Source of the DNA: Acidobacteriota bacterium
Lineage (GTDB): Bacteria > Acidobacteriota > UBA6911 > RPQK01 > JAJDTT01
NCBI GenBank assembly: GCA_965263035.1
Contig: OZ253580.1
Span: 32,001 to 96,000, forward strand
Direction of reading: 5' to 3'
DNA: 64,000 nt
The position numbers and the translations under genes are program-made. Every line of letters begins with the position of its first letter. Positions within the stretch are counted from its first letter, which is position 1. The notes under the pieces are model-generated. The model was not told the origin of the DNA. It did not search any database and saw only the letters and a program-made list of their open reading frames with translations. Of the stretch, positions 3,056 to 20,387 are shown piece after piece.

Positions 3056-3157
3056 AAACACCCTCACACTCTTTAAGACAGGAAGTTAGTTACAAGAAGT
3101 AATCCCGGCGGGCTGTGGAAACCGAAGGAGGGGGAACGGTGGCTAATGGACCCCTAG

Positions 3158-3895: not shown

Positions 3896-3946
3896 CCCGG
3901 TTCCCTCTTCCTACCGTCTCGGCGACTCGAATGGAGATCGCGGCGG

Positions 3947-5410
3947 TCAGCGGTGGACGGCCGGAGCGTCGGCCGAACTCTCATCAATCGACGCGATCCC
4001 TGTGGACGCGCCGAAGCAATAGAGCCGGCTTGTCGTTCGAATGAGGAGACACCCGCCGGCAATCGCCGGCGTCGCGTACACGTCCTCGTTCAAGTCGTTC
4101 GTCTGCAGCACCTTCCAGTCCGGACCGGGCTCGAGCACGACGGCTTTTCCGGCGTCGCTCACCATGTAGATCTTGCCGTCTCCAGCCACGGGCGAGGCGT
4201 AGAAGCCGTCGAGCGCATCCTGCAGCCTGCCCTGCTTGAGAACCTTTCCGCTGGCCGGATCCAACGCCGTCACGATGCCGCCGTTGCGCACCAGGTAGAG
4301 CACGCCGCGATAGAGGATCGGCGAAGCCACATCGGGGAGCGACTTCTGATGGCGCCAGATCAGGTGAGACTTGGTCACGTTCCCCCGGCCACCGAGGCGG
4401 ATTGCCATGCAGCCGTTCTCGGAGACCCGGCGGGCCCGGTAGTGCTCCCAATCCCGTGCGTTCATGGTGCCGTTCTTGTTCCGGTCGTGCATCTCCCAAC
4501 TGCCGGGCAGCCATTCTGCGGGGATCTCCTGCTTGGTCAGTTCCGAATCGCCGTTCGTGTCGAACCGGTCGCGCATCTCCTCGAACGGCAGCAACTCTAG
4601 GCGAGCCGTCGGCTCTCCCCCGGGAGCCCACCCATTGAAATAGAGCCGGTCCCCGTCAACAACAGGTACGGACTTGACCTGGTAGGTCAGTCCGTCGAGC
4701 CGCCAGAGTTCGCGGCCGTCTGCGGCGTAGCCGGTCATACGGTACGAGCCCGGCACGATGATCTCGGGGCTTCCCTGTCCCCGGTCGTGGACGACGGGCG
4801 TGGAGAAGCTGTGCACGACGTCGGGGCGCGCCTGCTTCCAGAGAATTTCGCCGTCGGCCGGGTCCACGGCGATGACGAAGGCGTCGAGGTCCTGGTCGCA
4901 GACTTGGACGAGCTTGCCGTCGACCAGGATCGGGGACGCCCCCATGCCGTGGAAATTGGTGAACGGTCCCAGCGGCCGCGTCCAGAGCTCGGTTCCGTCC
5001 GCGCCGTAGGCGACGAGACCGTACCCGCCGAAGAACGCGTAGACGTTCGTCCCGTCGGTGACCGGAGTCGGCGCGGCCTCGTCGTTCAGACGGTGCATTT
5101 TCTCGGTTCTTGTGGAGGGCGCGGCCCGGCGCCAGATCTCCTTGCCGGTCGAGCGGTCGAGGGCCATGGTGAGAAGCTTTCCGTCGTGGTGTGCCGTCAG
5201 GAAGATTCTGGTTTCCGTAACGATCGGTGAGGACTTGCCCGGAGGCAGACTCGTTTCCCAGATCACGTTGGAGCCGGGTCCGAAGACCGCGGGCAGCGGG
5301 CCCTCTTCAGCGACGCCGGTTCCGTTCGGCCCGCGGAACCGCGTCCAGTCCGACGCGATTGCGACGCAGGTGAAAACCAGCAAAGACAGGACTGACTTGG
5401 CCAACGGCAT
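3947..5410 (-). CDS. PQQ-binding-like beta-propeller protein (BamB-like), secreted
   Basis: Signal peptide, DWTRFRGPNGTG, repeated SSP/TP..W blades, EF-hand-like DTNGDSEL insert. Confidence 0.85.
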   Translation of the reverse strand: MPLAKSVLSLLVFTCVAIASDWTRFRGPNGTGVAEEGPLPAVFGPGSNVIWETSLPPGKSSPIVTETRIFLTAHHDGKLLTMALDRSTGKEIWRRAAPSTRTEKMHRLNDEAAPTPVTDGTNVYAFFGGYGLVAYGADGTELWTRPLGPFTNFHGMGASPILVDGKLVQVCDQDLDAFVIAVDPADGEILWKQARPDVVHSFSTPVVHDRGQGSPEIIVPGSYRMTGYAADGRELWRLDGLTYQVKSVPVVDGDRLYFNGWAPGGEPTARLELLPFEEMRDRFDTNGDSELTKQEIPAEWLPGSWEMHDRNKNGTMNARDWEHYRARRVSENGCMAIRLGGRGNVTKSHLIWRHQKSLPDVASPILYRGVLYLVRNGGIVTALDPASGKVLKQGRLQDALDGFYASPVAGDGKIYMVSDAGKAVVLEPGPDWKVLQTNDLNEDVYATPAIAGGCLLIRTTSRLYCFGASTGIASIDESSADAPAVHR

Positions 5411-5527: not shown

Positions 5528-6157
5528 GTGCGCCCGACATGGGCTGTATCTAAGGGATGAAAGATCCCAAGGGAGGTGATGGGACCAACCCTAGCCGAAC
5601 CGCAAGGCGTAGCCGCGAGGTGAAGCTGAAGGAAGCGGAAGGCAAACCCACGACCGCAGGAACACGAACCGGCAGTGAGGCCGGGTGCGGGCGGTGAGCT
5701 GGCGAGCAACAGCGAAACCCGAACCCCATCCAGACGCATCAGGTAGAGCCGGGCGGCCCGGGGGGAAAGATGCAGCACCTTACTCGGGGAGATCTCAAGG
5801 GTGAGAGCCCTTGAGAAGTCAGCAGAGGTCGTAGTAGCGAAGAAGCTGGGTAATGCCGGTGGAGCGAAGGACCGAAGGAGTCGGACTGGCCCTATGGTGG
5901 ACTCGTCAGCGGGATCGCAACTACCTCCGAAAACGGGCCGTGGGGAGGCCCCTCGGACCCGGCATGGAAGGCCCACGGGTGGAGCCCGGCAAGCCGGAAG
6001 GGCGGAGATCAAGTCTCAGCGGCGGCGGAAACCGGAAAGAAAGGCCCTGTACGAGGCTCGAAAGAGCCTCGGGTGACTCCAACCGCCGGATACTGAAAAC
6101 GGTATGTCCGGTGGTGTGGGAGGGTGCAGGGGCGCAATCCCCTGCACTCGACCCGAT
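5528..6157 (+). ncRNA. group IIC intron ribozyme, ORF-less (630 nt)
   Basis: 5' GTGCGCCCG; short domain V with CGC triad (AACCGCCGGATACTGAAAACGGTATGTCCGGTGG); DVI ends CCCGAT; inserted right after a hairpin; no RT ORF. Confidence 0.9.
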
Positions 6158-6419
6158 CGGCTCGGCGGTTGGAAATCGTTGCTCCAATCCTTGGAGAACA
6201 CCGACGGGCCGGCAGCGCATTGACAGCGTCATCGCGGTGTACGGCCGGACCTGCATCCCGGCGGACTTCATAGCTCCCCGGTCACATACGGGCTAGAATG
6301 CTCCCTTGGCGCATTTGGTCCGGCGAGCCGGGTCCCGGTTACGGGGGACGGTCACCACGGAAGGATTCCGAGGCGGGATTGCCGAAGCCAAAGGCTCAAC
6401 GATCTGCGGAGGATCCGTG

Positions 6420-8927
6420 ATGATGACGAATACCCGTTGGCTTGTGGCCCCGATCTTGGTCTGCCTGTGCCTGTCACAGAATGTGCGTTCCCAGGACTCG
6501 CCCACTCCGGTGGATCTGACTCCCTATCTCGTGCAGCCGAAAGCACAGGAATCGGGTCCGTCCGGATTCCAGTTGGCGTTCGCCGGCGAGGCCAGTCACC
6601 GGCTCCAGTTCCAGTATGGAGCCGAGGAGGCCGTCGAGCTGCAGGTGTCGGTGGGGTACCCGGCGGGAGGAGCTCGAACCCTGCGTCAGCTTCTGGACCC
6701 GGGTGCGGAAGGCCGTGAGGTCGGTTTCGATCTGGGGCCCCTGCTGGCCCACGGACCCTATCGTCCGATCCCCGCCTACACTCGCAAGGGTCCCCAGGCG
6801 AAGACTTGGCGTCCCTTGCGCACCGGCTGGTGGGTCGATACCCAGGATCCGGGCAAATATCTCGTGACCGTCATGGGAAGACGGGTGCGGGACGGCCAGA
6901 CCCTGTTTACGACCGACCTTCGGATCCCGGTCCAGAACTGGGTGGGGGCAGATCTGGACCGCTTGGCCTACATCGACGACAACGCGGCCGAGGCGGAGCT
7001 CTGGCTGGAGAAAGGCGCACCCGTCACGGAGCTGCCGGTCGAAGTGGATCTCGTGGAAGCCCGGACCGGCAGCCGGCGATCCTCCTCCACTCCGGTCCGC
7101 CTGACCCGGGACAAGATCCGGGTGGCCTTCGACCTGAGGGACCTGGAGTCAGCGACCTATCACGTTCGGGTCCGGCCTCGTATCGACGGCCGTCTCTGGG
7201 ACGACGGTGTCCGCCGGGCTCTCTACGTGTTCCGGAACGGGCCGCCGCCAAAACCGGAGCCACCTATCGAGATTCCGGTGGCTCCCCAGTTGTTCCTGGA
7301 CGACTTCCTGATCGATGAGCAGCGGAATCTCCAGAGGGTCTTCCATCCGGCTCGCAAGCTGGATGCTCAACCGATTGTCCGGGCGGACCGGCCCTGGGAG
7401 GGGCACGCGGTCATGGTGCCCAAGGGCTCGAGATACGAATTCAACGAGAAGCAGAACCGTTACGAACTGGAATACATTAGCCTGAGCCGCTATCGGTTGC
7501 TGGCCGTCTCCAGTGACGGAGTGCGTTGGACCAAGCCGGATCTGGGCCTGGTGGAGTTCGAGGGATCCCGGGCCAACAACATTCTGGAGATCGTTCCCCG
7601 CGGGAGCAACGTGGAAGCGGACGGCCGCTTCGGGGGACTGTGGGATTACAGGACTCGCGGGGTGCCTGATCTCCGGACCGCCAGCATGGTCTACACCCCC
7701 AAGACCGAAGACATGTTCTTCCTCCGGGGGACGTACCTGGTGGTCCGGGACTCGGACGGTGTCCGGTATCTCACCACGGAACGGCCCTTCATGCGGCATC
7801 ACTCGCAGTTGGAGTCGTTGGACAACCCCAACGACAACCTGGGGCCCATGTTCTACGACGAGCGGACGGGTGAGCTGGTGCTGTACTTCGCGCCGCATCC
7901 TCCGGCCAAGGGGCGGGGACTGGTGCGTTACGACAACAAGTGGGCGGTCTCGCGGAACCTGGGACGCATGACCACGCGAGACGGCGTGAACTGGCACCGG
8001 AGCTACATCTGGGCGCCGCCGCGGGAACATCCGAAGCACCAGAGTTACGGAATGCAGCGGGTGAAGCAGATCGGCGACCTGTACGTGGCGTTCTTTCCTC
8101 TCTACGACTGCGGGACGCAGCAGATGGACGTCCATATCTGGGTGAGCCGGAACGGGATTCACTGGGAGGATGTTGGAGGGGACCAAGCCTGGATCCCCAA
8201 CGGACCCGACGGCAGCTTCGATCATGGGATCGTCTACAGCCTCATCGACGGGCCGGTGGAGGGGGACCGGTCCGAGGCCTTCTACCACGGGACGAACACC
8301 CTGCACTTCAACGCCTGGATCCTGAGCCGGTTGAGGGGGGGATTGGATGATCCTCCAGTGCCAGCCTCCAAGATCTTCGACGAGAAGACCTACAACGGGC
8401 GGCCTTATCTGTCGCCGCCGGCGCCGGTGGGGCCGGGGTGGGCCATGTACGACTGCATCTGGAGTTGGCGGCGGCCTCGCTGCAGCCAGACCATGGAGGA
8501 AGTACGGGAAGCCTTCTGGGCCGAGGTGGAGGCGAACACGGGGCAGAATCGAAGCAACCACGTGGAGAAGAGCCGTGAGTACGAGATCGTGCCGTTCCGG
8601 GTGGAGTTTCGCACCAATGGGTTCGCGTCGAGACGGGCCGGGGAGCAGGAGGGCGTGTTGACGACCCATCCCTTGATCTTCCAAGGGAGCCGTCTGACGG
8701 TGAATGCCGCGGCAAGTGTGGGTCGAGTGGCTGTAGAGGTCTTGGACGAATGGGGTAGTCCCCTGCCCGGTTACGGCCGAAAGGAGTGCCGGCTCGAGGC
8801 CTTCGACAGCATTCAGCAGGAGGTCACATGGCGCGGACAATCGACTCTGGATACATTACGAGGCCACCCGGTTCGTCTCCGATTCTACGTTCACAAAGCT
8901 GACATTTACGGATTTCAAATACATTGA
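6420..8927 (+). CDS. secreted protein with a five-bladed beta-propeller glycoside-hydrolase-like domain
   Basis: GGAGG RBS, signal peptide, QLFLDD, S.DG..W Asp-box-like repeats, C-terminal LRFY..ADIYGF; paralogue of 49128-50693. Confidence 0.7.
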   Translation: MMTNTRWLVAPILVCLCLSQNVRSQDSPTPVDLTPYLVQPKAQESGPSGFQLAFAGEASHRLQFQYGAEEAVELQVSVGYPAGGARTLRQLLDPGAEGREVGFDLGPLLAHGPYRPIPAYTRKGPQAKTWRPLRTGWWVDTQDPGKYLVTVMGRRVRDGQTLFTTDLRIPVQNWVGADLDRLAYIDDNAAEAELWLEKGAPVTELPVEVDLVEARTGSRRSSSTPVRLTRDKIRVAFDLRDLESATYHVRVRPRIDGRLWDDGVRRALYVFRNGPPPKPEPPIEIPVAPQLFLDDFLIDEQRNLQRVFHPARKLDAQPIVRADRPWEGHAVMVPKGSRYEFNEKQNRYELEYISLSRYRLLAVSSDGVRWTKPDLGLVEFEGSRANNILEIVPRGSNVEADGRFGGLWDYRTRGVPDLRTASMVYTPKTEDMFFLRGTYLVVRDSDGVRYLTTERPFMRHHSQLESLDNPNDNLGPMFYDERTGELVLYFAPHPPAKGRGLVRYDNKWAVSRNLGRMTTRDGVNWHRSYIWAPPREHPKHQSYGMQRVKQIGDLYVAFFPLYDCGTQQMDVHIWVSRNGIHWEDVGGDQAWIPNGPDGSFDHGIVYSLIDGPVEGDRSEAFYHGTNTLHFNAWILSRLRGGLDDPPVPASKIFDEKTYNGRPYLSPPAPVGPGWAMYDCIWSWRRPRCSQTMEEVREAFWAEVEANTGQNRSNHVEKSREYEIVPFRVEFRTNGFASRRAGEQEGVLTTHPLIFQGSRLTVNAAASVGRVAVEVLDEWGSPLPGYGRKECRLEAFDSIQQEVTWRGQSTLDTLRGHPVRLRFYVHKADIYGFQIH

Positions 8928-9270: not shown

Positions 9271-10442
9271 ATGTCTAGTTACACCTCCAATTTCGCCGTC
9301 CGTCTATTCTACAGTTATAGCCACAAAGACAGTCATTTTCGCGACTCTATGGAAGACTCGCTTTCATTGCTCAAACAACGTGGATTGCTCGATGACTGGT
9401 CAGATGTAAAGATTTTACCCGGAGGAAAGATCTCGAAAACCAACAGGAAGAAGATGGATAACGCTGACATCATGGTGTTTCTTCTCAGCCGGAACTTCAT
9501 TGCTTCGACCGAGTGCATGAAGGAATGGGAGTACGCAAAGCGTCGTACTAATGAAAAAGTGCTCGTCCGCATTCCAATAATTCTATCCGATTGTGCGTGG
9601 CTAGATTTGCTTGGGAGCGACGACATCAAAGCATTGCCGCGAGATGGCAAACCTATCATGCGATTTGCCGATGACGGTGGCGCCTGGCAACAGGTATATG
9701 AGGGCATTAAAGTCGTTGTAGACAACTTACGAACAACTTTCACTCCAAAACAGGAATTCTTGGAGATAATGGAGAAAACCGATTTCTTGTCCGTACAACA
9801 CATTAGACTACAGGACATTTTTATATTTTTAAGATTGTCCTGTTACGCACCTCATGCAAGGGGGGAACATCCACCAAAAGAACAGGTTGACACCATAGAG
9901 GAGCTATTAAAGAATAAATATACGATAGTCCACGGTGACGAGATGAGTGGCAAGACAGCTCTCGGGCGCTTTCTGTTTCTTTCTCTGACAAAGGAGTTGG
10001 AACCTGTTCTGCATATAGATTTGCAACATCTTCCTAGACGTCCCCTTCGAGAAGAAACCTTTCGCCATACATATCACCGGCAGTTTAATGGCGATTATTC
10101 TCTCTGGAAGCGACAGCCTTCAAAAACCCTTATATTGGACAACTTGCAGCCAACTCCTCAATTAGTTAAATTTATTGTACTCTCCAAGGATTATTTCGAT
10201 AAAATAATAGTTACTTTATCGTCTGATATATTCAACTCGTTTTTCAGGGACGAAGAGCGTCTGGCCGAATTCTATGAAATGGAAATTGAACCGCTTACTC
10301 ACCGACAGCAAGAGACGTTGATTAGAAATAGACTCCGATTGTCGGATCGTAGCGAAACAATCACCGACGGCGTCGTCGATCAAATAGAAAACCGAGTGAA
10401 TTCCATAATCATTTCTAACAGGATCGTACCACGGTATCCATT
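9271..10442 (+). pseudogene. TIR-domain + P-loop (STAND-like) NTPase, 5' part; split by the IS1595 cargo element
   Basis: TIR motifs LFYSYSHKD and FIASTECMKE (catalytic Glu); Walker A HGDEMSGKT; frame joins 19074-20387 across the TSD (IVPRYP|FYVLSILQ). Confidence 0.88.
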
Positions 10443-10493
10443 GGGGACTACACAGATGTCTAGGCACGCCCAAATGCGCCAAATCAGAGACTA

Positions 10494-10710
10494 TCAATCT
10501 CGCACGAAAGTGCTAGAATAGGAAGAGGGGAGCACAACAACCAAGGGCCACACCATCACAACTGCAAGGCCATCAGTCATCTTAAGGCTCCCCTGCCCCA
10601 TTGCCTACCGAATCAGGTAGAATGGCGGGGAGGGGAGCATAAAAACCAAGGCCGACACTAACACAATTAGATCAGCGGCATCAGTCATCTTAAGGCTCCC
10701 CTCCATCATT
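10494..10710. other. two paralogous stem-closed cassettes: ncRNA (+) and/or 27-28 aa hydrophobic peptides (-)
   Basis: AGGGGAGC...GCTCCCCT closing stems, shared CATCAGTCATCTTAAG, TAGAAT upstream of each; minus-strand ORFs 10494-10580 and 10605-10688 both begin MTD. Confidence 0.55.
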
Positions 10711-10716
10711 TCATTA

Positions 10717-10907
10717 TACTGCTTGCCTGTAAGATCAGACCCACGAAAGTGCTAGAATGGGATGGAGGCGGGTTGCCCGACTTTGGATGATGGGGCCTGT
10801 TTCAGAAACAGGTTGGTCCTTATGGCCACGGAGGTTCGAGTCCTCCACCCGCCTCCATCAGGGTTATTGTACTGCTTGCCTGTAAGATCAGACCCACGAA
10901 AGTGCTA
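10717..10907 (+). repeat. 38-bp perfect direct repeat flanking a tRNA-like gene
   Basis: TACTGCTTGCCTGTAAGATCAGACCCACGAAAGTGCTA at 10717-10754 and 10870-10907. Confidence 0.9.
10767..10857 (+). tRNA. tRNA-like gene, anticodon CAG (Leu), Ser-type long variable arm, U73, encoded CCA
   Basis: Acceptor GGCGGGT/ACCCGCC; anticodon arm CCTGT-TTCAGAA-ACAGG; T arm GGAGG-TTCGAGT-CCTCC. Confidence 0.85.
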
Positions 10908-11159
10908 CAAGCCCTGTCGGTGAGACCTTTCTTTTGGAGTCAATGCCCATTCGACACCTCTCGGTTGATGGACTTTCCCTTGGTCCCTTAACAGTTTGAG
11001 TTGTCCTGTAGTAATTGCATTGAACCCCTGCTCTGGCAAACCGAGCTTTTCAGTAATTGGACTTAACGACAACCCCTCCTCGTATTTCTCCAATAGATTC
11101 AAGATTCCAGCTTGGATCAAGCGTTCTCCCATCTCTGCAAGCATTCTAGCCTCTGCCAT
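10905..11159 (-). CDS. small winged-helix-like protein
   Basis: AGGAGG RBS; ILNLL...GLSLSPITEKLGL...LKLLRDQGKV pattern typical of wHTH. Confidence 0.6.
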   Translation of the reverse strand: MAEARMLAEMGERLIQAGILNLLEKYEEGLSLSPITEKLGLPEQGFNAITTGQLKLLRDQGKVHQPRGVEWALTPKERSHRQGL

Positions 11160-11185
11160 CTGCTTCCTCCTAAGTAAAATACATC

Positions 11186-11485
11186 ATGGAACTAGGATTC
11201 ACACTTCCACCCACCCGACCCCGCCCAAAGATCCCTCTACAGCAAACGTGTAAGAGGTGTGGGCAACCAGACAAGTTCGACTTCCACGTACCAGATCATC
11301 TTTGGAAGTCTATAGTCCCAAAGTCCCATCGGAACCTTGCTATGTGTCTGTATTGCTTCGATGAGGAGGCCGCCGCTAAAGGTATTCCCTACGCGTGGGC
11401 CATCACTGAGTTTTGTTTTGCAGGCCGCGGAGCCACATTTGGCTTCACGGTGTCACGATACGTTGAAAAGAGGCAACTGATCTAG
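11186..11485 (+). CDS. small Zn-finger-like protein
   Basis: CKRC...CLYC pairs. Confidence 0.55.
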   Translation: MELGFTLPPTRPRPKIPLQQTCKRCGQPDKFDFHVPDHLWKSIVPKSHRNLAMCLYCFDEEAAAKGIPYAWAITEFCFAGRGATFGFTVSRYVEKRQLI

Positions 11486-11649
11486 TCGTCACAGTCGCCG
11501 TCCTTTTCTTTGGCCTGGCACTGATTGCAAAGTTCCCCGCTGGTCGGCTTCGCGTTCCTGCTAACGTAGTCGTCCGTTGGCCAGTTGGAACAGTTGCGGC
11601 AATAGTGCCACGTATCGCTCGTTCTTCGCTTTCGGTATTGTCTCGCCAT
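11482..11649 (-). CDS. small Cys/His-rich protein (55 aa)
   Basis: WHYCRNCSNWP...ELCNQC; AGGGGGTG RBS. Confidence 0.65.
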   Translation of the reverse strand: MARQYRKRRTSDTWHYCRNCSNWPTDDYVSRNAKPTSGELCNQCQAKEKDGDCDD

Positions 11650-11766
11650 GCTTTTCACCCCCTTTCTGGCTAGTCGTGATCCCATTAAGGAAGGAATCAG
11701 AGGAGCTTGATAAGAGACTTCAAATATAGCTTGAGTGCACGCCCAAATGCGCCAAATCGGATATTC

Positions 11767-11979
11767 TCAATCGTCAATCTGAGAGGCAGCGAACTCCAAG
11801 ACTCGGGCTAGTTCTCGGGCTTGGTTAGTACTCATATATGAGTAAACATTACCGTTTTCAATCCTCAGTTCCAGTGGGTAAGTCTCTTTGCAATCTTCCT
11901 CGTGAGGGTATCGAAGGCGAACTTCCCTGGTGGGGTACGCGCTCAATGTGATCTCAAATTCTTTCTTACTGTCTATCAT
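11767..11979 (-). CDS. hypothetical protein (70 aa)
   Basis: GGAGGAGAGG RBS; lies directly downstream of a 36-aa ORF at 11992-12102 (MAIVIIVLQHL...). Confidence 0.55.
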   Translation of the reverse strand: MIDSKKEFEITLSAYPTREVRLRYPHEEDCKETYPLELRIENGNVYSYMSTNQARELARVLEFAASQIDD

Positions 11980-12548
11980 GGTCCTCTCCTCCTATAGTCC
12001 CAACATTCGAGCAAACTGCTCCTTGGTCATGCCGTCATAAATGCTGCGTTTCGGCCTGAAGAAGTTATTTAGATGTTGCAGTACAATAATGACAATTGCC
12101 ATTGGTTTACATCTCCATAGTTATTTCATTGGCAACGGCCAGGGGGTTTGGGAGTTCTTCCCCCTGGCCACTAACCTTCCTCAGATATCATACCACAGAA
12201 TCAGGAAAAGGGAACGGCGGGGAAGAGCGGAGGAGTCTGACGGCTCCGAAGCGACACACTACGCATCAGATCCGACACCCGGCTTTCCAGTGTGTCACAG
12301 GCTCCCTTGCGTGCGTGAGCAAGTAGGCAAGGAGTTCATCCTCCGCTCCTCTGTCCTCTTATTGTACTCCGTGTGCAATACGTGGAGGATTTAGGAGGCG
12401 GCGCGGCTCCAACATGGAGCAAAGGGTTTTGTGTAGCCAGTTCAGTTAGGCAAAAACGCGCCGCCCTGGTAAATGCCTACCATGATATTCGATGGAGTGC
12501 AACCTGTGATCTGGATTTCTTGTCACAGGTGGTCTACGATGCGGTGGA

Positions 12549-12652
12549 GGAGGGGTGGCAGAATTGGCATTGCACTCGAATTTAAACTCGTAGGTCAGTA
12601 GGCGTTGCACCACAGCGCACCTGTACGGGTTCAAATCCCGTCCCCTCCTCCA
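12549..12652 (+). tRNA. aberrant tRNA-like gene (104 nt): 8-nt anticodon loop ATTTAAAC, very long variable arm, U73, CCA
   Basis: Acceptor GGAGGGG/CCCCTCC; D arm GCAGAATTGGCATTGC; T arm ACGGG-TTCAAAT-CCCGT; anticodon ambiguous (TTA counting from the 5' side). Confidence 0.65.
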
Positions 12653-12662
12653 TTGTGATGTC

Positions 12663-12751
12663 GGGAGCGTGGCCGAGTTGGATTATGGCGCCCGGCTGAA
12701 AACCGGGTGGGTGTAACAGCCCCGCAGGTTCGACACCTGCCGCTCCCGCCA
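12663..12751 (+). tRNA. tRNA with a Ser-type body (G73, long variable arm) and anticodon GAA (Phe), encoded CCA
   Basis: Acceptor GGGAGCG/CGCTCCC-G-CCA; anticodon arm CCCGG-CTGAAAA-CCGGG; T arm GCAGG-TTCGACA-CCTGC. Confidence 0.88.
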
Positions 12752-12773
12752 TCAATTCATAATACTCGGAGCA

Positions 12774-13223
12774 TCAAAAAAGCCTTTGACTTCGTTGGAG
12801 CAGGCCATCGAGTCTTCCTTTCGGAAGTTTTCCAACAGATTCCCAAATCGTCTCTCCAAAAACCGCCTCATACGATCCTGATTCGATGAACTCAGTAGCG
12901 TTTAGCGAGAGGATGACCCCAACACAGTCCGCCAGTATCAGTGCGGCCAGCGCCTCACGTCGGACCATCCCTCCAAAACCATTACGGGCACCAAAATCAA
13001 TTAGGACTAGTCGATACCCTTTAAGTTCAGGAGAGCTAGACGCGATCGTTTTTATTACTGTAGTGCTGTACACCTCCAGGCTGTTAGGGTCTGTCAACTT
13101 CTGTTGAATCTGCTCGTTTAGACCCGGAACACTGCCGTCTGAACTCATGCAATTAGACCCACTCGACGGCGTACAATTGGCGGTCAGAAGCACAAGAAGC
13201 AAAACGGTGCAGGAGTTTTCCAT
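12774..13223 (-). CDS. putative lipoprotein
   Basis: Hydrophobic signal ending LTANC; DFGARNGFGGMVR motif. Confidence 0.6.
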   Translation of the reverse strand: MENSCTVLLLVLLTANCTPSSGSNCMSSDGSVPGLNEQIQQKLTDPNSLEVYSTTVIKTIASSSPELKGYRLVLIDFGARNGFGGMVRREALAALILADCVGVILSLNATEFIESGSYEAVFGETIWESVGKLPKGRLDGLLQRSQRLF

Positions 13224-13254
13224 AACTCAATCTTTAATTAGAATAGATGTAGAC

Positions 13255-13343
13255 GGCGGGTTGCCCGACTTTTGGATGATGGGGCCTGTTTCAGAAACAG
13301 GTTGGTCCTTGTGGCCACGGAGGTTCGAGTCCTCCACCCGCCG
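13255..13343 (+). tRNA. tRNA-like gene, anticodon CAG (Leu), Ser-type variable arm, G73, no encoded CCA
   Basis: Near-identical copy of 10767-10857 with the discriminator changed to G; TAGAAT at 13239-13244. Confidence 0.83.
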
Positions 13344-13477
13344 CCCTTGCAATGAAGGAGGATGAGAACCGAAACCGTGCCTTCCCTAACTTCACACTGC
13401 CGACTAGAGCAGCTTAAAAGAAGGCGAGTAACGAACCGAAAAGCTCATCCTCCTCCATCAATTTATAATACTTTGAC

Positions 13478-14755
13478 CTAAAGTCCTGGCACAGAACTGC
13501 ACTTCGATGGAACGATCACAGGATCATCCGATTCCTCAGACTCTCGGTACCTAATAGACCCTCTTTGCGACCAGGGGAGGTTAGGCACATCGGGCAGTTC
13601 AATCTCTGTTCTAGTACCGCCTACGAATCCCTTATCTGGCACCAGTACCCATTCACCACGCCTGTACCAGATGTGAGATCGTGCCCAGACCCGCGAGTAC
13701 CTAATATCGATCGGATCATCTTCGGACATACGTCGGTGGAAAGCGCCGATGTTTGGATTAGGTTTAGAGCTACTAGAAAAGGAACTCGTCCAACTCAGCT
13801 TTCCAGAGAAATTCAACCTGGCCGTAGCGACACATCGACCTGGTCTTTCTTCAAATACCTGGTGGATCTGGTATCCTTGTGCAGTATCAGGCAACTCATA
13901 TCCGCCATCAGAGGTACGGGTTCTACCACCTCCTGCAGGAACCACTGACATCCCATTCTCCAGAGCAGGAGGGATCCCTTGGTAGTCAGCACGTGCTGCC
14001 TTCCCATAGATGCCTTCTATTGTGGTGTCAAAAGCTCCCTTTTCCCGTATTACAATGTCTCTCCAGTCACCAGGGGGACAGTCACCTTCCGTCACGTCTG
14101 GAGGGCCTTCATACAATCGCTCCCACTGTGCTTCATGCCACCGGGCGTTTCCATACTCCGGAGCAAAAGACTCAACTACCATCAAGGTGTAATCGAGCCC
14201 TGTCCCTGACTCTGGGTCGTCCACTTTGACAAGCCAACGCTTGAACTCATCTACAACTCGCCGATTCATGTCGGAGTAGCTTTTGACTCCGACAATGTGC
14301 CCACGGAAGTACTCGGTCCCAGAGAACGAATCAGAGAGAACACGTATACATTCCTCTGTCTTGAGGACTTCATGGGCATCTTGAATGGGCGCTTCGGTGA
14401 GCTCCACTGATTCGCACTCGAGTTCGTCTTTGAATCTAAAGGAGTCTGTTGGGTCCTTGTCTCCATAGATGAGTACAAGAGGGTCGGGAAGAGGAACGAC
14501 CATTGCAGCAAAGAACTTCCCTGACTCGTACTCTGTGACTCTCCACTCATAGATGTGACCACAATGGATCGCATCAAAAAATTCTAGGTTGATGATCTGA
14601 CCGTCGTGGGGAGGCTCTGAAAGACTCACCTCAACGCGACAATCTGGACAGGCGTTAGGGATAAATCCGTATGGAGTGTCGAATCCCCACTTCTCCTCGG
14701 CTTGTACATTCGCCAGGAATGCAGCAAAGGCCATTAGCACAATTACTTTTCTCAT
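13478..14755 (-). CDS. secreted acidic, Cys-containing hypothetical protein
   Basis: AAGGAGG RBS; signal peptide MRKVIVLMAFAAFLANVQA. Confidence 0.75.
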   Translation of the reverse strand: MRKVIVLMAFAAFLANVQAEEKWGFDTPYGFIPNACPDCRVEVSLSEPPHDGQIINLEFFDAIHCGHIYEWRVTEYESGKFFAAMVVPLPDPLVLIYGDKDPTDSFRFKDELECESVELTEAPIQDAHEVLKTEECIRVLSDSFSGTEYFRGHIVGVKSYSDMNRRVVDEFKRWLVKVDDPESGTGLDYTLMVVESFAPEYGNARWHEAQWERLYEGPPDVTEGDCPPGDWRDIVIREKGAFDTTIEGIYGKAARADYQGIPPALENGMSVVPAGGGRTRTSDGGYELPDTAQGYQIHQVFEERPGRCVATARLNFSGKLSWTSSFSSSSKPNPNIGAFHRRMSEDDPIDIRYSRVWARSHIWYRRGEWVLVPDKGFVGGTRTEIELPDVPNLPWSQRGSIRYRESEESDDPVIVPSKCSSVPGL

Positions 14756-14783
14756 AGCGTACCTCCTTACTCTGTATTCAGAT

Positions 14784-15128
14784 TCAGAATCCCAATGCCT
14801 TGCGGGCGAACTTCTGGATCTGTTTCCACATAATGACCTGATCGAAGTGATGGTCAACGCCGTAATGGTCAGTGTGCGTTATACCATCCTTCAAAATCTC
14901 GCCTGCAATGGGGAGCACGGAGTCGGGAGTCCACCGAGTCAGAACGTCCGAAGGATCGTCCGTCCGGCACAGGTACATCTGTGCTGTAATAACGATCATG
15001 TAGTCGCCTGTGTCGGACGGAATCACGAACAGTGCGTTTGGAGGAGTCTCCACCTCCGTGTTCCAAGGGTGTCCCACACCAAACGCGACGGATAGAATTG
15101 TGATAGCGATTAGCAATGTGTTTCTCAT
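14784..15128 (-). CDS. secreted hypothetical protein (114 aa)
   Basis: AAGGAGG RBS; signal peptide; likely co-transcribed with 13478-14755. Confidence 0.7.
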   Translation of the reverse strand: MRNTLLIAITILSVAFGVGHPWNTEVETPPNALFVIPSDTGDYMIVITAQMYLCRTDDPSDVLTRWTPDSVLPIAGEILKDGITHTDHYGVDHHFDQVIMWKQIQKFARKALGF

Positions 15129-15349
15129 AATGCCTCCTTCTCGTACCTTGTGTACGACTTGTTGATTTATGACATCGGTGACCGACGCATTTAGTACACT
15201 ATTATATCACATTATAATAGATGCACAAAGCAAGACGACCAAGGAATTAAGGAAGTATTCGGAAGGGGCGGGACAATAACAAACCGCCCCTTCGAACATC
15301 GCTCCGGGGTCGGGTGAAAGTAGTAAAGCCCTCCCCCATGTGGGAGCGA

Positions 15350-15586
15350 TTACCGGGGTGGCCGAATCAAAGCTACACCTTCATCGTCGTACTGTCCGAC
15401 CCAATTATCGTGGGACAGACGATGTCGGGCGTGCGATCTCAACTGTGCCCGAGTTGCCGGGAGGAGCAGACCCATGAGGCGCGTCTGATCCTGAGCGAGG
15501 GGCAACAACGCTTCCCAGGTAATGCCTCCTGGCGCAGTCATCAAGTGATCGAGGTATCCGGCGTAGGTGCTGAAATTGCGGGGCAT
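15350..15586 (-). CDS. hypothetical protein (78 aa)
   Basis: AGGAGG RBS; preceded by a long structured leader. Confidence 0.5.
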   Translation of the reverse strand: MPRNFSTYAGYLDHLMTAPGGITWEALLPLAQDQTRLMGLLLPATRAQLRSHARHRLSHDNWVGQYDDEGVALIRPPR

Positions 15587-15991
15587 CGCGGGTCCCTCCT
15601 GGGGGAGGGTCCCGTATCAGAGGCGTAGCAAGCTGACAACGTATCGGGTAAACTGTCTGACAGGCTGACTTTCCTCCAACACAGGACCAGTTGGCTCAGA
15701 GTCCGTTGGGTGCTGATATCACCTGACGGACTCACCTTTTCAGAGTACTCGGCCTAGCTACAAGGAGCACTCGTTCCCTTGTAAGGGAGCCGGGTCTGAG
15801 TGCTCATCGAACAGCGATGCTGATGGAAGAGTTGCTTATTCACCCGGCGCGGTTCATGAGGCCACGCTTTACCAGGTTGTTTTATTCAGCAAGAGACCCG
15901 ACACAAGCGAATCACTGCCGAGAGCACTGAGGCGGGATTGTGCCGGATAAATAATTGGTAGTCAATAGAAGGGAGAAAATTATCTCAACTC

Positions 15992-16219
15992 TCAGCGGAG
16001 GGTGTCCACCACGGCATTCCGTACCGATTCCATCCAGGTCTCAATCTCCCGCTGGTGTTGGACCAGGGCCTTTACCTTGTCGTCCACAATCCGCAGCCGT
16101 CGGATAATGAGCAGGTGAGAGACGATGATGAGGAATAGGACCAGGAGCAAGGCGAAGGCGTACCAGTGTTGATCGACGATGGGAGGGATTCGGGAGAGTA
16201 ATGAGTTGAGCTGTTCCAT
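15992..16219 (-). CDS. small single-TM membrane protein
   Basis: One hydrophobic helix YAFALLLVLFLIIVSHLLII followed by a coiled-coil-like tail. Confidence 0.6.
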   Translation of the reverse strand: MEQLNSLLSRIPPIVDQHWYAFALLLVLFLIIVSHLLIIRRLRIVDDKVKALVQHQREIETWMESVRNAVVDTLR

Positions 16220-16272
16220 GCTTCAATCTTCCTGCTTTGCCGAAGTATAATACATACATGGCGGAGGGTTGA

Positions 16273-16348
16273 TGGACGCAGCGGGCTTCGGACCCGCGTC
16301 TCCCGGTTTTCAGCCGGGTGTGTTATCCGGGATAAACACTATGCGCCC
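16273..16348 (-). tRNA. tRNA with Ala identity elements (G3:U70, A73) and anticodon GAA (Phe)
   Basis: On the minus strand: acceptor GGGCGCA/TGCGTCC-A; anticodon arm CCCGG-CTGAAAA-CCGGG; T arm GCGGG-TCCGAAG-CCCGC. Confidence 0.82.
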
Positions 16349-16475
16349 TCGGTTTGCTTTTCCCTCCGCCATTCTAAACATCTTGCCAAGGTCAGGGGTC
16401 TTTGGTATTTTGGCCTCTCTCGCGCATGATTGTAGGCAATCAATATTATGTGTTATCATGTGTTCTTCAATGATG

Positions 16476-16551
16476 TGGAGCCGGTGCCAGGAATCGAACC
16501 TGGACACGAGGACTTGCTGGGCCCCGGCGTTTGCCATTCCGCCACACCGGC
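16476..16551 (-). tRNA. tRNA-like gene, anticodon AGC (Ala), no G3:U70, U73, CCA
   Basis: Acceptor GCCGGTG/CACCGGC-T-CCA; loop CCAGCAA; T arm CCAGG-TTCGATT-CCTGG. Confidence 0.8.
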
Positions 16552-16575
16552 TCCCTTCATTATAGACCGTCAGAG

Positions 16576-16651
16576 GGGAGCCGGTGCCAGGAATTGAACC
16601 TGGAAACAAGGAATTGCGAGTCCCCGACCTTGGCCACTCAGTCACACCGGC
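16576..16651 (-). tRNA. tRNA-like gene, anticodon CGC (Ala), no G3:U70, U73
   Basis: Second unit of a 100-bp tandem repeat; loop CTCGCAA; 3' end TCCC. Confidence 0.8.
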
Positions 16652-16675
16652 TCCCTTCATTATAGACCGTCAGAA

Positions 16676-16751
16676 GGGAGCCGGTGCCAGGAATCGAACC
16701 TGGAAACAAGGAATTGCCACTCCCCGACCTTGGCCACTCGGCCACACCGGC
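16676..16751 (-). tRNA. tRNA-like gene, anticodon GGC (Ala), no G3:U70, U73
   Basis: Third unit of the 100-bp tandem repeat; loop GTGGCAA; 3' end TCCC. Confidence 0.8.
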
Positions 16752-16871
16752 TCCCTTCATTTTAGCACAGGGGGACTATCGTGAAAAAACGACCTCGCAA
16801 GCCCGTGGACATCCTAGCCCTGGCAATGCGCCGGGCTTATGAGCAAACTAGGGGCGGAGAAGCCGAATCCC

Positions 16872-17843
16872 TCAATGAAGATCGTCCGCCTTGTCGGAAA
16901 CCAGATCGAGATACAGCAGACGACGACCGACCATCCCCGCCACGATGTGCTTCATCTGGTCAATAGTATCCAGTTCCCGGATGTTGTGACGCTTGACAAA
17001 CTCGTTGACGTAGCGGTGCAGGTGCTTCACGCTCAAGCTGTGGAACGTCCCCATGTAGCCCCGCTTCAACATCGACCAGAAGGATTCGATGCCATTTGTG
17101 TGTACTATGCCGTCAACGTACTGTTGAGCGCTGTGTCTCACAGACTTGCGATTTGAGCCCATCCAGGCGTAAGCCTGATTCTCGTCCGTGTACGACTTCA
17201 CTCCGAAAGTGGAGCTGTCCAAAATGAACCGGGCAAGAGTCTCCTTTGTCGTGTCCGGCACCACCCTGGCCCTGATTTGATTCGTAGGCCGGTCCTTCAT
17301 GCCTACCACTGCGGTCTTGCCTGAGGGTCCACGACCGGAAAACATCGCCCGTCGCTTCTTGCTCATGTTCCTCCGCTTGCCTCCCATATAAGTCTCGTCG
17401 ATTTCCACGGGACCGATCAGAGCTTCCAAATCGTCCTTGTCCAAGGACTCGCGGAGTCGGTGCAACATGAACCACGCCGTATTCTGCGTCACGTCGATGT
17501 CTCGATGGAGTTTCATCGAGGAGACTCCCTTGAGGTTCGTGACGTAGATGAAAATGGCGTAGGCCCATTTTCGGAGCGGAACCTTGGATCTTGTCAAGGC
17601 CGTGCCAGTGCGGACGCTGAAATACCTACGGCAGTCCGAACACCAGTACGGCTGCGGATATCGGTTTGGCGTCTCATTCGTCTTGACGCTGCCGCAATGA
17701 CCACAGCACCGTTCCTCGGGCCAGAGAACATCCTCAAACCATTTCGTCGCGGCTTCCTCCGTGGGGAACATCTCCGCGAGTTGGATCATTGAGATCCCTT
17801 GTCGGTAGAACTTTCCGGGGGCTTTCCCCTTGCACTTGTCCAT
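16872..17843 (-). CDS. IS1595-family (ISXO2-like) transposase, intact
   Basis: Zn ribbon CGHCGS/CSDC, AWFMLHRLR, VEIDETY, YTDE, HTNGIESFWS, YVNEF. Confidence 0.93.
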   Translation of the reverse strand: MDKCKGKAPGKFYRQGISMIQLAEMFPTEEAATKWFEDVLWPEERCCGHCGSVKTNETPNRYPQPYWCSDCRRYFSVRTGTALTRSKVPLRKWAYAIFIYVTNLKGVSSMKLHRDIDVTQNTAWFMLHRLRESLDKDDLEALIGPVEIDETYMGGKRRNMSKKRRAMFSGRGPSGKTAVVGMKDRPTNQIRARVVPDTTKETLARFILDSSTFGVKSYTDENQAYAWMGSNRKSVRHSAQQYVDGIVHTNGIESFWSMLKRGYMGTFHSLSVKHLHRYVNEFVKRHNIRELDTIDQMKHIVAGMVGRRLLYLDLVSDKADDLH

Positions 17844-18079
17844 GGTGGGCCTTTCGTGGTAGGATTCTCGGGACGCGGCTGAACCGAGGAACCCACGGCC
17901 TGGCAACCTCCGTTTGTAAGTGAGAGACCAGAGCGCAGGACCTGCTTCGAAACCGCGTCCAATTCAATTATATCACACCTTTATAGATGGTGTTTTTATC
18001 AGCCTTACTCTCCTTTAATTCCCTGTAATTATGCCATCGGACCCTGACATTTTTCTGTCATAAATCCTTTGTTTAGTTT

Positions 18080-18438
18080 AAGGTTACGAAGATTTAATTG
18101 ACCTTTTGTGTGATTGTGTGGTAAAATTATTGGGTTAATGTGAACAGGAGGCATGATGACTAAGAAGGAACTCAACGGATTCACAGAGGCAGTTCGAACG
18201 GTTGTCCGAGAGGAATTAAAGCCGATTGAGCAGCGTCTCGACAAACGCCTTGACGACTTGAAGAAGGAAATCCCTGGTCTAGTTGCGGACGTGATCGCAC
18301 AACGATTTCCAACCCTGTTCCCACACTCATAGGCTGCCAGATCAATTAGGAGGAAGGTTACGAAGATTTAATTGACCTTTTGTGTGATTGTGTGGTAAAA
18401 TTATTGGGTTAATGTGAACAGGAGGCATGATGACTAAG
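18080..18438 (+). promoter_or_regulatory. duplicated 85-bp promoter+RBS+start block
   Basis: Identical at 18080-18164 and 18354-18438: TTGACC-N18-TAAAAT with extended TG, AGGAGG, ATGATGACTAAG. Confidence 0.8.
18153..18332 (+). CDS. small coiled-coil protein (59 aa, MMTKKELNGFTEAVR...)
   Basis: Hand-translated; strong promoter and RBS; N-terminus paralogous to 18427-18705. Confidence 0.7.
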   Translation: MMTKKELNGFTEAVRTVVREELKPIEQRLDKRLDDLKKEIPGLVADVIAQRFPTLFPHS

Positions 18439-18705
18439 GAAGAACTCAACGGTTATGTCAACGCCGTCAGGCTCGTGGTCCAGGAGGAACTTGAGCCCGT
18501 CAAATCTCAGATTACAACCCTGACTCTTCGAATGGGAGATGTGGAACTGAGGTTGGGAGAGGTTGAAGCCAGAATGGGCACGTTGGAGTCTCGCATGGGA
18601 ACGGTCGAGGCCAGAATGGGGACATTGACTCAGAGAATGGGTGATGTTGAGACTAAGGTAGGGGCGTTGACTCAGAGAATGGGTGATGTTGAAGCCAAAT
18701 TGTAG
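18427..18705 (+). CDS. heptad-repeat coiled-coil protein (92 aa)
   Basis: 7-aa repeats such as RMGDVEL, RLGEVEA, RMGTLES. Confidence 0.75.
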   Translation: MMTKEELNGYVNAVRLVVQEELEPVKSQITTLTLRMGDVELRLGEVEARMGTLESRMGTVEARMGTLTQRMGDVETKVGALTQRMGDVEAKL

Positions 18706-19073
18706 GATGGGGTGATGGAGGAGAACGACTAGACGTAGTTGTAGGGGTAGGTGACTACTGCCCCTCCGGGGGGAGCGATGGAGTTAGTCAAACTACCACT
18801 CCCTCTGTCCCCTCCATCATTTAATTATACTCCCCACGAAAGTGTAGAATGGGATGATGGAGGAGGGAAACCAATCCTGCCGTCCCATGTATTAACACCA
18901 CAATCGGCAGGGCTACCGTTGAGGCACACCCCAAGGCGGTAGGCTGCTCAGCGATAGTGTGTCTTCCACTGGGTCCAGCCATCGCCCTCCTCCATCATGT
19001 GATTGTACTCCCCACGAATGTAAGGCCCAGTTCAATGACCCTGGAGGCGTGCCTAGACATCTGTGTAAGCCCC

Positions 19074-20387
19074 TATCCATTCTACGTACTCTCAATACTC
19101 CAAACCTACGAGGCCTTTATGCCTAGTGAGCTCTCTATTACTTCCTACGGTCACTGTTACTATGTCCTTATTATTGCCAACTTAGTTAAGGCAGGCATAC
19201 CTCGTAGCGACGATCAACTAAATACATGTTTTTACTTTGCAGAACGCTTAGCATTTGAAATTTATCGGATTGCAAGGAAATCCAACTCGGGGTCGTTGGA
19301 TTTTGACAAGTTTGTGGCGGACTACAGAAATCAATATATAATTTCGCGATCGGTCCTGAGTAGGTTGATGCATCCCGATTTTGGAATCATCAATACAGAA
19401 GGTCAATTCAAAACAGCGTACATGTACTACTTCTTTCTGGGCAGGTTCCTCTCGAAGAACCGCAGCACACACATATCCATAATTGAGAATATGTGTGAAA
19501 ATAGCCACGTGACTTCGAACCACCTGACGCTTCTTTTCGTTATTCATCATACTGATGATAGACAAATAATTGATGACATATTGCTTAGGACAATGTGCAC
19601 ACTGGACACTGTGCAACCCGCGGTTCTAGATCGAACGGAAACTCGGAGATTCAAGGATATCATTGCCGGGCTCCCCACAAATATACTCTCCAATGATAGT
19701 GTGGTGAAGGAAAGGAAAAGACAGAGGGATGGTCGCGACTTGACCGAGAAGCAAGACGGGTACGATGGTGATACGGATGGCATCGATCAACAAAGCCTGG
19801 TTAACGACATTTACAAAATCTTTAAAAATAACGAGATTATGGGGCAAATTCTACGAACCAAATACGGAACGTTAAAAAAAGAGACGATTGTGGAAATCAT
19901 CGAGACGATTGCGGACAGTGGGCTACGCCTTGTCAACTTTGTCCTCAAGGATGAAAAGGAAATAGCCGATACCGCCCACTACCTTCATGCGAAATATCCG
20001 AAGGATGATATAAAGAAGATAAAAAACTATCTTCAATTCTTTTCTTTTTTCTGGACGATAGTAAATGTTGAAAAAGTTGCTAGAGCCATAAATGTTCCAG
20101 AGATTATTGAAACGGTCGATTCAGTCGTTACGCGGAAGGGGTCGCCGGCGTACGATCTTATTGGATACTTCAGCCTGCTCGACAGTTCTCCGGAAATCTC
20201 AAGGAAAGTTAATAAACGACTAGGATACCTATTGAACACTCACAAGGACCTGTTTGTTAAGTGGGTGTTGTCAATTAGAACGCAATACTATATGAATACC
20301 CACGATAGTGGGGCATCGATGGAGCAATCGGTCTGTTCGTTGTTAGATATCAAGTATTCCTCAGCCCATCGTTCCTTACGACGGTAA
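19074..20387 (+). pseudogene. TIR-NTPase gene, 3' part (reconstituted protein about 825 aa)
   Basis: In frame with 9271-10442 once the element and one TSD copy are removed; same low-GC codon style. Confidence 0.88.

Follow-up and report, generated by a model that had tools for sequence, protein, structure and literature searches.

The window analysed here is a 64,000-nucleotide stretch of contig OZ253580.1 (GenBank assembly GCA_965263035.1, positions 32,001 to 96,000 of the forward strand), and it contains eight tRNA genes, designated A to H, all of which lie inside one transposon of the IS1595 family (10443-19073). Six of these genes were called by ARAGORN, and Rfam added two more, at 12549-12649 (+) and 16273-16348 (-). 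The third gene, tRNA C, joins a body resembling that of serine tRNAs to the phenylalanine anticodon GAA. We tentatively propose, with a confidence that stops somewhat short of even, that tRNA C is a natural Phe-to-Ser missense suppressor acting at UUC and UUU, and that it is part of a transposon-borne set of mis-identified tRNAs. The features from which this reading starts are the following, with coordinates counted from the first base of the window:

12663 to 12751, + strand: tRNA C, a 7/5 class II gene with anticodon GAA, G73 and encoded CCA, identified by ARAGORN, Rfam, folding and its tRNA-Ser relatives
12691 to 12707, + strand: anticodon arm of tRNA C, CCCGG-CUGAAAA-CCGGG, identical to the arm of tRNA E; elsewhere native to tRNA-Phe and, with GGA, to tRNA-Ser
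10443 to 19073, no strand assigned: IS1595-family transposon of 8,631 bp, with inverted ends, a target duplication and a split host gene

ARAGORN placed tRNA C at 12663-12751 (+) with anticodon GAA, and Rfam matched family RF00005 at 12663-12748 with 52.9 bits against a gathering score of 29 (E = 1.6e-8). The acceptor stem has 7 bp (GGGAGCG/CGCUCCC) and is followed by U8 and by a D stem of three Watson-Crick pairs and one G:U (G10:C25, C11:G24, C12:G23 and G13:U22), with A14, G15, G18, G19 and A21 kept. The 5-bp anticodon stem (CCCGG/CCGGG) closes the loop C32 U33 G34 A35 A36 A37 A38 (CU-GAA-AA); the variable region of 16 nt consists of a 4-bp stem (GGGU/GCCC) with the loop GUAACA, followed by a single C48; and the T arm (GCAGG-UUCGACA-CCUGC) has a 5-bp stem and the bases G53, U54, U55, C56, A58 and C61. 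The gene ends in G73 and an encoded CCA. Every stem pairs and all invariant tRNA bases are intact; the score above the RF00005 threshold and the conserved D-loop and T-loop bases qualify the gene as one for an elongator tRNA. Its cloverleaf is the minimum-energy fold, but the energy is unexceptional (z = -1.86, with 8 of 200 shuffles as good), and significance rests therefore on the covariance-model score and not on the energy. The first-pass annotation had described a class II cloverleaf with G73, a long variable arm running into C48, CCA and the loop CU-GAA-AA, and on all of this ARAGORN, Rfam and the fold agreed, so that the gene, its coordinates and its anatomy were confirmed.

According to the accessible part of PMC9976931, serine identity in bacteria resides in the long variable arm and in the conserved pairs G1:C72 and G2:C71, whereas the anticodon plays no part; G73 contributes to serine identity and is an antideterminant against the leucyl- and tyrosyl-tRNA synthetases (LeuRS and TyrRS), and the seryl enzyme (SerRS) of Escherichia coli recognises tertiary shape. 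The whole bacterial serine set is present in tRNA C (long variable arm, G73, G1:C72 and G2:C71), together with G15:C48. When compared with phage sequences, tRNA C matched 11 records; an annotated tRNA lay under the match in nine of them, in all nine cases a tRNA-Ser, and the remaining two were an unannotated record and one labelled 'hypothetical protein' at that place. The best match was to an annotated tRNA-Ser(gga) with 77% identity and an identical 16-nt variable region (loop GUAACA), whose anticodon stem (CACGC/GCGUG) is unlike that of tRNA C. Genes of this kind, from Microbacterium, Streptomyces and Erwinia phages, were the closest sequences to tRNA C (75-79% identity, G73), from which they differ in having the anticodon GGA and another anticodon stem.

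Other features of the body speak against a straightforward serine assignment. Bacterial tRNA-Ser genes typically place three bases ahead of G18G19 and carry a G in the stretch that follows; the D loop of tRNA C has four bases ahead of G18G19 (AGUUGG), as in the leucine references, and the bases that come after G19 (AUU) include no G. With just 4 pairs the variable stem is short, and the 16-nt variable region lies at the short end when set against the 19-24 nt of 31 fetched tRNA-Ser genes. Surrogate covariance models were built from seven Armatimonadota tRNA-Ser(CGA) genes, chosen because by construction they do not share the arm of tRNA C, and from four tRNA-Leu genes; tRNA C scored 58.1 bits on the serine model versus 61.9 on the leucine model, both models being narrow and drawn from other phyla. 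Given that SerRS recognises tertiary shape, serylation of tRNA C could be poor. Charging with leucine is unlikely, since LeuRS requires A73. The serine-type body noted earlier is thus upheld by the long arm, G73, the two acceptor pairs, the nine annotated phage relatives and the absence of A73, but is weakened by a D loop atypical for tRNA-Ser, by the four-pair variable stem and by the failure of the small Ser and Leu models to separate.

The anticodon itself is not one of serine (NGA or GCU). The four strictly conserved elements of phenylalanine identity are G34, A35, A36 and A73, and a yeast tRNA-Tyr given the GAA anticodon was mischarged by the phenylalanyl enzyme (PheRS), again according to the part of PMC9976931 drawn on here. 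The first three of these elements are present in tRNA C, and with GAA as a major PheRS determinant some phenylalanine charging is possible, a further point against exclusive serylation. If such charging prevailed, tRNA C would be a long-armed tRNA-Phe, charged through GAA, and would cause no mistranslation. Against this stand G73 in place of A73 and a 16-nt arm in place of the short variable loop of class I; in addition, all 92 tRNA-Phe genes found to carry the same anticodon arm (among the matches listed in the genome scan described below) are of class I. A long variable arm probably clashes with PheRS, and we regard phenylalanine charging as the explanation of tRNA C as improbable.

The 17-mer CCCGGCTGAAAACCGGG that makes up the anticodon arm has two copies in the window, at 12691-12707 (+) in tRNA C and at 16302-16318 (-) in tRNA E; two matches were obtained in none of 100 shuffles. 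The earlier remark that two different bodies share one anticodon arm therefore holds exactly over 17 nt. In order to place this arm, genomes were scanned for it with either GAA or GGA together with a T-loop motif, which gave at least 118 loci, with 282 tRNA calls in them; the source genome was not among the matches listed. ARAGORN identified at least 92 ordinary class I tRNA-Phe(GAA) genes with the arm, mostly in Aquificota, Thermoflexus and Bipolaricaulota, and at least 16 ordinary tRNA-Ser(GGA) genes with its GGA form, in Armatimonadota and Fervidibacter; among the matches listed, no tRNA was called at 10 places, with one reverse-strand artefact. The arm is native to the tRNA-Phe and the tRNA-Ser(GGA) families, which differ in it at position 35 only. 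Consequently, one substitution (G35A) in a gene of the Ser(GGA) type could account for tRNA C, tRNA E could carry a native Phe arm, and the arm shuffling that had been suggested is not needed. An exchange of arms within the element is still possible, because the closest relative of the tRNA C body has another anticodon stem and because tRNAs F, G and H show the re-use of modules.

The single base between GGA and GAA opens two further explanations. Were GAA a sequencing or assembly error, the true gene would be an ordinary tRNA-Ser(GGA); the identical 17-nt GAA arm in a second gene 3.6 kb away and the mismatches of the neighbouring tRNAs make this extremely improbable. Alternatively, tRNA C may be a neutral or decaying passenger, that is, a captured Ser(GGA)-type gene with G35A that is silent or tolerated and has no selected function. 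In favour of such an origin, one base separates its arm from that of at least 16 ordinary tRNA-Ser(GGA) genes. None of the 282 tRNA calls at the matches listed was an intact class II tRNA with GAA, so that tRNA C has no intact relative among them; this does not prove that there is none, but it counts against a maintained suppressor and in favour of a passenger; a truncated class II fragment with the GAA arm in a Dehalococcoidia sequence and the lack of a promoter of its own in front of tRNA C go in the same direction. On the other side, all stems and invariant bases of tRNA C are intact, independent accidents would hardly account for seven further odd tRNAs within one element, tRNAs F, G and H have compensated changes, and the transposon is recent, with intact ends and a perfect duplication. 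We consider the passenger explanation unlikely.

The Dehalococcoidia fragment lies at 7869-7954 (-) of its locus and is 3'-truncated in the T loop; no tool called a tRNA there. A repeat of its variable-arm sequence follows it, resembling the remnant of an integration site.

Three of the matches, from Planctomycetota, proved to be tRNA arrays: L043 with 23 genes (1-5000), L071 with eight (6300-7900) and L103 with three (1-600), and their tRNA-Phe genes carry the anticodon arm of tRNAs C and E. As clusters of extra tRNA genes they are like the long tRNA arrays on mobile DNA described in the accessible part of PMC8421152; they are ordinary-looking sets with largely standard discriminator bases. 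Odd members among them include class I-sized genes with the leucine anticodons UAG and CAG and tRNA-Phe genes with the unusual T arm GGGUUCGAGCACC. The idea that the element described here is a piece of such an array was dropped, as L043, L071 and L103 contain neither its promoter and trailer motifs nor those of its ends.

The other seven tRNA genes of the element depart from the norm in ways of their own:

10767 to 10857, + strand: tRNA A, a class II gene whose D arm is Ser-like, with CAG as anticodon (for the leucine codon CUG), U73 and CCA; called by ARAGORN
12549 to 12652, + strand: tRNA B, irregular, with U73 and CCA; its anticodon loop has 8 nt (AUUUAAAC), the stem of that loop a bulged U and the variable arm 31 nt; Rfam 39.4 bits
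13255 to 13345, + strand: tRNA D, a copy of tRNA A with CAG and G73; called by ARAGORN (repeat D2, 97%)
16273 to 16348, - strand: tRNA E, class I, with GAA, A73, G3:U70, the T loop UCCGAAG and a 12-nt D loop; Rfam 50.6 bits
16476 to 16751, - strand: a tandem of three 100-bp units, tRNAs F, G and H, whose anticodons AGC, CGC and GGC belong to the alanine codon box; called by ARAGORN and Rfam (repeat D1)

For tRNAs A and D a serine-like body was supported by the narrow surrogate models (58.2 bits on the serine model versus 54.4 on the leucine model for A, 55.9 versus 48.1 for D) and by the D arm, in which 13-15 of 18 positions are identical to Ser as against 6-7 of 18 to Leu and Tyr. The two genes differ at four positions, all of them unpaired. 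They were also considered as tRNA-Sec (10766-10854 and 13255-13342), and this was rejected on Rfam scores of 36.8 and 34 bits, below the threshold of 47. In tRNA B the constrained cloverleaf (-34.7 kcal/mol) comes close to the free minimum (-35.3 kcal/mol); its anticodon could be UUA, UAA or four bases long, and it could accordingly read UAA, UUA/UUG or a four-base codon.

In tRNA E, the anticodon arm and the bases that follow it match the tRNA-Phe of one planctomycete array at 29 of 31 positions, and the gene aligns with three such genes. The pair G3:U70 is the determinant for the alanyl enzyme (AlaRS). On account of that match and alignment, what had been called an Ala-body gene is better described as a Phe-type gene carrying G3:U70. 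The tandem genes F, G and H have one acceptor/T helix in common (GCCGGUG...CACCGGC), carry U73 and lack G3:U70, and for the last two reasons they are not alanine tRNAs by the rules; F has C33. All 60 of their 60 cloverleaf cells are paired, and three pairs are changed on both sides versus none in six slid controls; the observed values were reached by 35 of 500 shuffles. In all three genes GCA, the cysteine anticodon, lies one base out of register, at positions 35-37. The D arm of F is tRNA-Leu-like, and those of G and H resemble the Ser or Cys type. Natural mistranslating tRNAs sometimes have no U33, which may damp decoding (PMC11415595, in its accessible part). Phage sequences gave no match to tRNAs A and E, and for H a single 27-nt match to an unannotated record.

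Two aspects of this company favour the proposal that tRNA C is a missense suppressor within a set. One is the presence of the other mismatched genes, namely the two Ser-like genes with CAG, the GAA gene with G3:U70 and the three genes for the alanine box with U73. The other is that the structure of the cargo is maintained, with compensated pairs in F, G and H and with differences between A and D that fall at unpaired positions.

The tRNA genes share a cassette format with five RNAs that are not tRNAs (X1 to X5), and its parts are the following:

12535 to 12540, + strand: -10-like hexamer TACGAT, 8 nt upstream of tRNA B, unflagged by the sigma-70 scan
12746 to 12766, + strand: conserved AU-rich trailer CCGCCATCAATTCATAATACT, with related copies after X2 (10700) and X3 (13452) and its core at 18814 (repeat family D4)
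10764 to 10766 (tRNA A), 12546 to 12548 (tRNA B) and 3 nt 5' of tRNAs F, G and H: leader GGA, pairing with U73-C74-C75
10520 to 10712, + strand: non-tRNA cassettes X1 and X2, which both contain a TAGAAT box and are closed by a long stem (repeats D7 and D8); X2 ends in ...GCUCCCC-U-CCA-UCA
13355 to 13458, + strand: structured RNA X3, a closing stem followed by the conserved trailer; z = -4.49, 0 of 200 shuffles as good
18710 to 19002, + strand: multi-branched RNAs X4 and X5, with closing stems of 12-14 bp, X5 following a CACGAAAGTG-TAGAAT box; z = -4.83 and -4.38, 0 of 200 shuffles as good for each

Hexamers resembling a -10 box (TAGAAT, TATAAT, TAAAAT or TACGAT) precede seven of the tRNAs, ending 7-10 nt 5' of A, B, D, F, G and H and 22 nt 5' of E; a formal sigma-70 scan flagged those of D and H only. 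Expression signals within the cargo itself lend support to the suppressor proposal. The gene for tRNA C starts 10 nt after the CCA of tRNA B and has no promoter of its own, and TACGAT is likely to be the promoter of a B-C dicistron. Both the box CACGAAAGTG and the trailer CCATCAnTTnA occur four times, in every case inside the element. X1 and X2 have conserved flanks around a variable centre, and the closing stems of X1 to X5 span 10-14 bp. Fold z scores were -0.58 for X1 and -4.45 for X2 (0 of 200 shuffles as good). No Rfam family was named for the X RNAs at a permissive threshold between 8500 and 34000.

This format speaks for another explanation of the cargo, in which its RNAs, tRNA C included, are non-decoding structured small RNAs of the transposon: uncharged mimics that enter A sites and signal starvation, decoys for enzymes that target tRNAs, or participants in the element's own biology. 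Promoter, closing stem and trailer are common to the tRNAs and to the five non-tRNA RNAs, which in X2 to X5 fold with z scores of -4.4 to -4.8, and the fact that one format holds both kinds of RNA is a difficulty for a purely translational role. The flanks of the tRNAs raise a second difficulty. In seven of the eight cargo tRNAs, base 73 finds a partner in the base just 5' of position 1, against a background of about 30% (70 of 248 tRNAs from the other fetched loci and 11 of 34 from the three planctomycete arrays). Through pairing of the leader GGA with U73-C74-C75, five of the genes (A, B, F, G and H) would form a helix of 10 bp; the leader UGAUGUC of tRNA C pairs with GCCAUCA in six of seven positions; and tRNA E is enclosed in an 11-bp helix of leader and trailer (z = -4.08 for the fold with flanks). 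Such pairing might stand in the way of ordinary maturation, or it might point to some other role. Several members depart from tRNA norms (E by C55, F by C33, B by its 8-nt loop), in keeping with a non-decoding function, and irregular tRNAs that E. coli enzymes did not aminoacylate are on record in the accessible part of Mukai et al. (PMC7609411). Against such a function, tRNA C itself has all invariant bases, a 7-nt anticodon loop with A36-A37-A38 and an encoded CCA, and the anticodons of the set are coherent, covering the whole alanine box and the top leucine and phenylalanine codons, which points to codon reading. Pairing of a leader is, moreover, compatible with RNase P action in known cases. 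On balance we find a non-decoding role for these RNAs unlikely.

The element that carries these genes was delimited by its ends and by the host gene into which it is inserted:

10443 to 10470, + strand: left terminal inverted repeat, 28 bp, with just two copies in the window, the other with two mismatches
19046 to 19073, - strand: right terminal inverted repeat, 26 of 28 bases the same as the left
10435 to 10442, + strand: left copy of the target-site duplication TATCCATT, 8 bp, read from the sequence
19074 to 19081, + strand: right copy of TATCCATT, 8 bp, perfect, read from the sequence
16872 to 17906, - strand: IS1595-family DDE transposase, 344 aa (Pfam DDE_Tnp_IS1595, 1.8e-34; NCBIfam NF033547, 175 bits against a cut-off of 75)
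9271 to 10442, + strand: N-terminal part of a TIR-STAND defence gene (PADLOC ThsB-like, 1.9e-29, and PDC-S60), residues 1-390 of an 823-aa homologue
19082 to 20387, + strand: C-terminal part of the TIR-STAND gene (PADLOC PDC-S60, 2.3e-24), residues 392-820 of the same homologue

Target duplications of the IS1595 family are 8 bp long. The type of transposase, the inverted ends and the 8-bp duplication all place the element in this family, and the transposase presumably acts on these ends. PADLOC recognised a ThsB-like TIR protein in the open reading frame (ORF) at 9271-10521, with a further match to residues 187-288 of PDC-S60, and matched the ORF at 18957-20387 to residues 438-889 of the same 906-position model. 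The left half ends in ...IVPRYP, at residue 390 of the relative, and the right half starts with YVLSILQ..., at residue 392. Among the best 120 of 619 matches, relatives of full length consist of one protein each, with 795-864 aa. The defence gene is thus split by the transposon at a single codon. Taken together, the split gene, the inverted repeats, the 8-bp direct repeat and the transposase define an 8,631-bp transposon that was recently inserted in a TIR-STAND gene, its ends being intact and its target duplication perfect. The first-pass annotation, although right about tRNA C, had missed this transposon, six other odd tRNAs and the split defence gene. A 36-nt direct repeat, 89% identical, is found at 10464-10499, starting in the inner left end, and at 11737-11772, 1.3 kb inside; such a repeat could be left over from an assembly that was nested or proceeded in steps. 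A collection of plasmids gave no blastn match for 10500-17000 or for tRNA C alone.

The anticodons of the cargo address the most used codons of the host, which favours the suppressor proposal. In 15 long ORFs outside 8-34 kb (7,696 codons), CUG is the commonest codon (5.5%), and GCC and UUC make up 5.1% and 3.1%; TTY, CTG and GCN together amount to 18.7% of these host codons versus 11.7% of the 1,488 codons in ten ORFs of the element. Two considerations raised by these data and by the ORFs of the element weigh against the suppressor proposal. Mis-decoding 19% of codons should be very harmful. Furthermore, when the ORFs of the element were searched with Pfam, PHROGs, PADLOC and NCBIfam, no synthetase, modification or other tRNA enzyme, toxin-antitoxin pair or clear regulator was found; apart from the transposase, the searches gave just weak coiled-coil or helix-turn-helix hints. 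An 84-aa helix-turn-helix-like protein is encoded at 10905-11159 (-).

The following course of events is what we infer for a Phe-to-Ser suppressor in this setting. The gene for tRNA C would be co-transcribed with that for tRNA B from the -10-like box, and the transcript would be matured by RNase P and by 3' trimming to the encoded CCA. The host SerRS, blind to the anticodon, would then charge tRNA C with serine, and the resulting Ser-tRNA C would compete with Phe-tRNA-Phe at UUC and UUU codons, giving rise to Phe-to-Ser substitutions. Because the CAG, GAA and NGC tRNAs address about 19% of host codons, the cargo set is probably kept at a low level or regulated. As a whole, it may constitute a mistranslation module of the mobile element that serves in stress response, addiction or host manipulation.

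Several known systems resemble this one in part. In the accessible parts of PMC5389517 (Mukai et al. 2017) and PMC7609411, tRNAs of serine or alanine identity with non-matching anticodons decode according to their identity in E. coli, and irregular tRNA genes occur near toxin-antitoxin and transposon genes, a precedent for the proposal made here. These allo-tRNAs and irregular polycistrons, from Acidobacteria and other phyla, are like the set described here in combining Ser or Ala identity with non-matching sense or stop anticodons and in forming clusters of odd tRNAs linked with transposon-related genes; a Phe-reading member appears once in those parts. With its serine elements and a non-serine anticodon near mobile genes, tRNA C agrees with the description, although no toxin-antitoxin genes were recognised in the present element. 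The acceptor/T branch of allo-tRNAs, as given there, has 12 bp arranged as 8/4 or 9/3, whereas that of tRNA C is a standard 7/5, and for this reason tRNA C does not belong to the allo-tRNA family. Other differences from the accounts in these parts are the planctomycete-like host, the delimited IS1595 transposon and the presence of a -10 box for each unit, with tRNA C, which follows B, having none of its own.

A natural mismatch of identity and anticodon, with mistranslation across the proteome, also characterises the tRNAProX/ProRSx pair of Streptomyces and Kitasatospora in the accessible part of PMC10404621; that tRNA has proline identity and an adjoining dedicated synthetase, whereas the ORFs of the present element include no recognisable synthetase family. 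The human variant tRNA-Ser-AGA-2-3 G35A has the same change at the same position and inserts serine at Phe codons, but, as far as the accessible parts of PMC12993449 and PMC11415595 go, it occurs as a population variant in a eukaryote, has the anticodon AAA and is not carried by a mobile element. Neither mismatched tRNAs carried by a transposon in Planctomycetes, nor cargo of this kind in a DDE transposon, nor a bacterial tRNA of Ser type with a 7/5 branch and GAA turned up in our literature search, whose coverage left subscription journals outside.

As for its wider setting, the window is planctomycete-like, with members of the PSCyt1, PSCyt2, PSD1 and DUF1501 families at 33.7-40.2 kb. The G+C content of the flanks is about 0.6-0.68, and that of the 8-34 kb stretch 0.46-0.60. 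In this low-GC stretch a 1,993-aa protein with no more than weak matches to AAA/STAND-type ATPases is encoded at 26374-32355 (-), among other transposase genes (1455-2483, 20840-22105 and 24383-24877). The ORF at 34245-36596 combines a Druantia DruA-like region with Tn5-type transposase domains. A near-identical pair of group II intron D1-D4 segments (Rfam RF02001 and RF01998) is present at 5609-5872 and 56776-57039, and in the ORF after the first of them no reverse-transcriptase family was recognised.

A bolder view of the element is that it carries an RNA-only weapon or addiction module, made of mis-identified tRNAs, each with its own promoter, aimed at CUG, GCN and UUC codons; we hold this to be quite doubtful. 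If it were true, a de-repressed set would poison or reprogramme the proteome or, if uncharged, would mimic starvation at the A site. In either case the element could retain, arrest or exploit its host, and the shared cassette format would identify small-RNA cargo of a new class in DDE transposons.

Few systems are known in which a natural tRNA pairs one identity with the anticodon of another, and their purpose is debated. The insertion reported here, in a TIR-STAND gene, shows a transposon that has put a defence system out of action, whether or not by accident. It also provides a tractable case for natural mismatches of this kind: a standard-shaped Ser-type tRNA for Phe codons, with seven odd companions and with anticodons that fit the commonest codons of the host, in a delimited and recently active transposon with short, self-contained genes. 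If the set is expressed and charged as predicted, mistranslation would be a mobile, horizontally transferable trait, and what the element gains from it could be asked directly.

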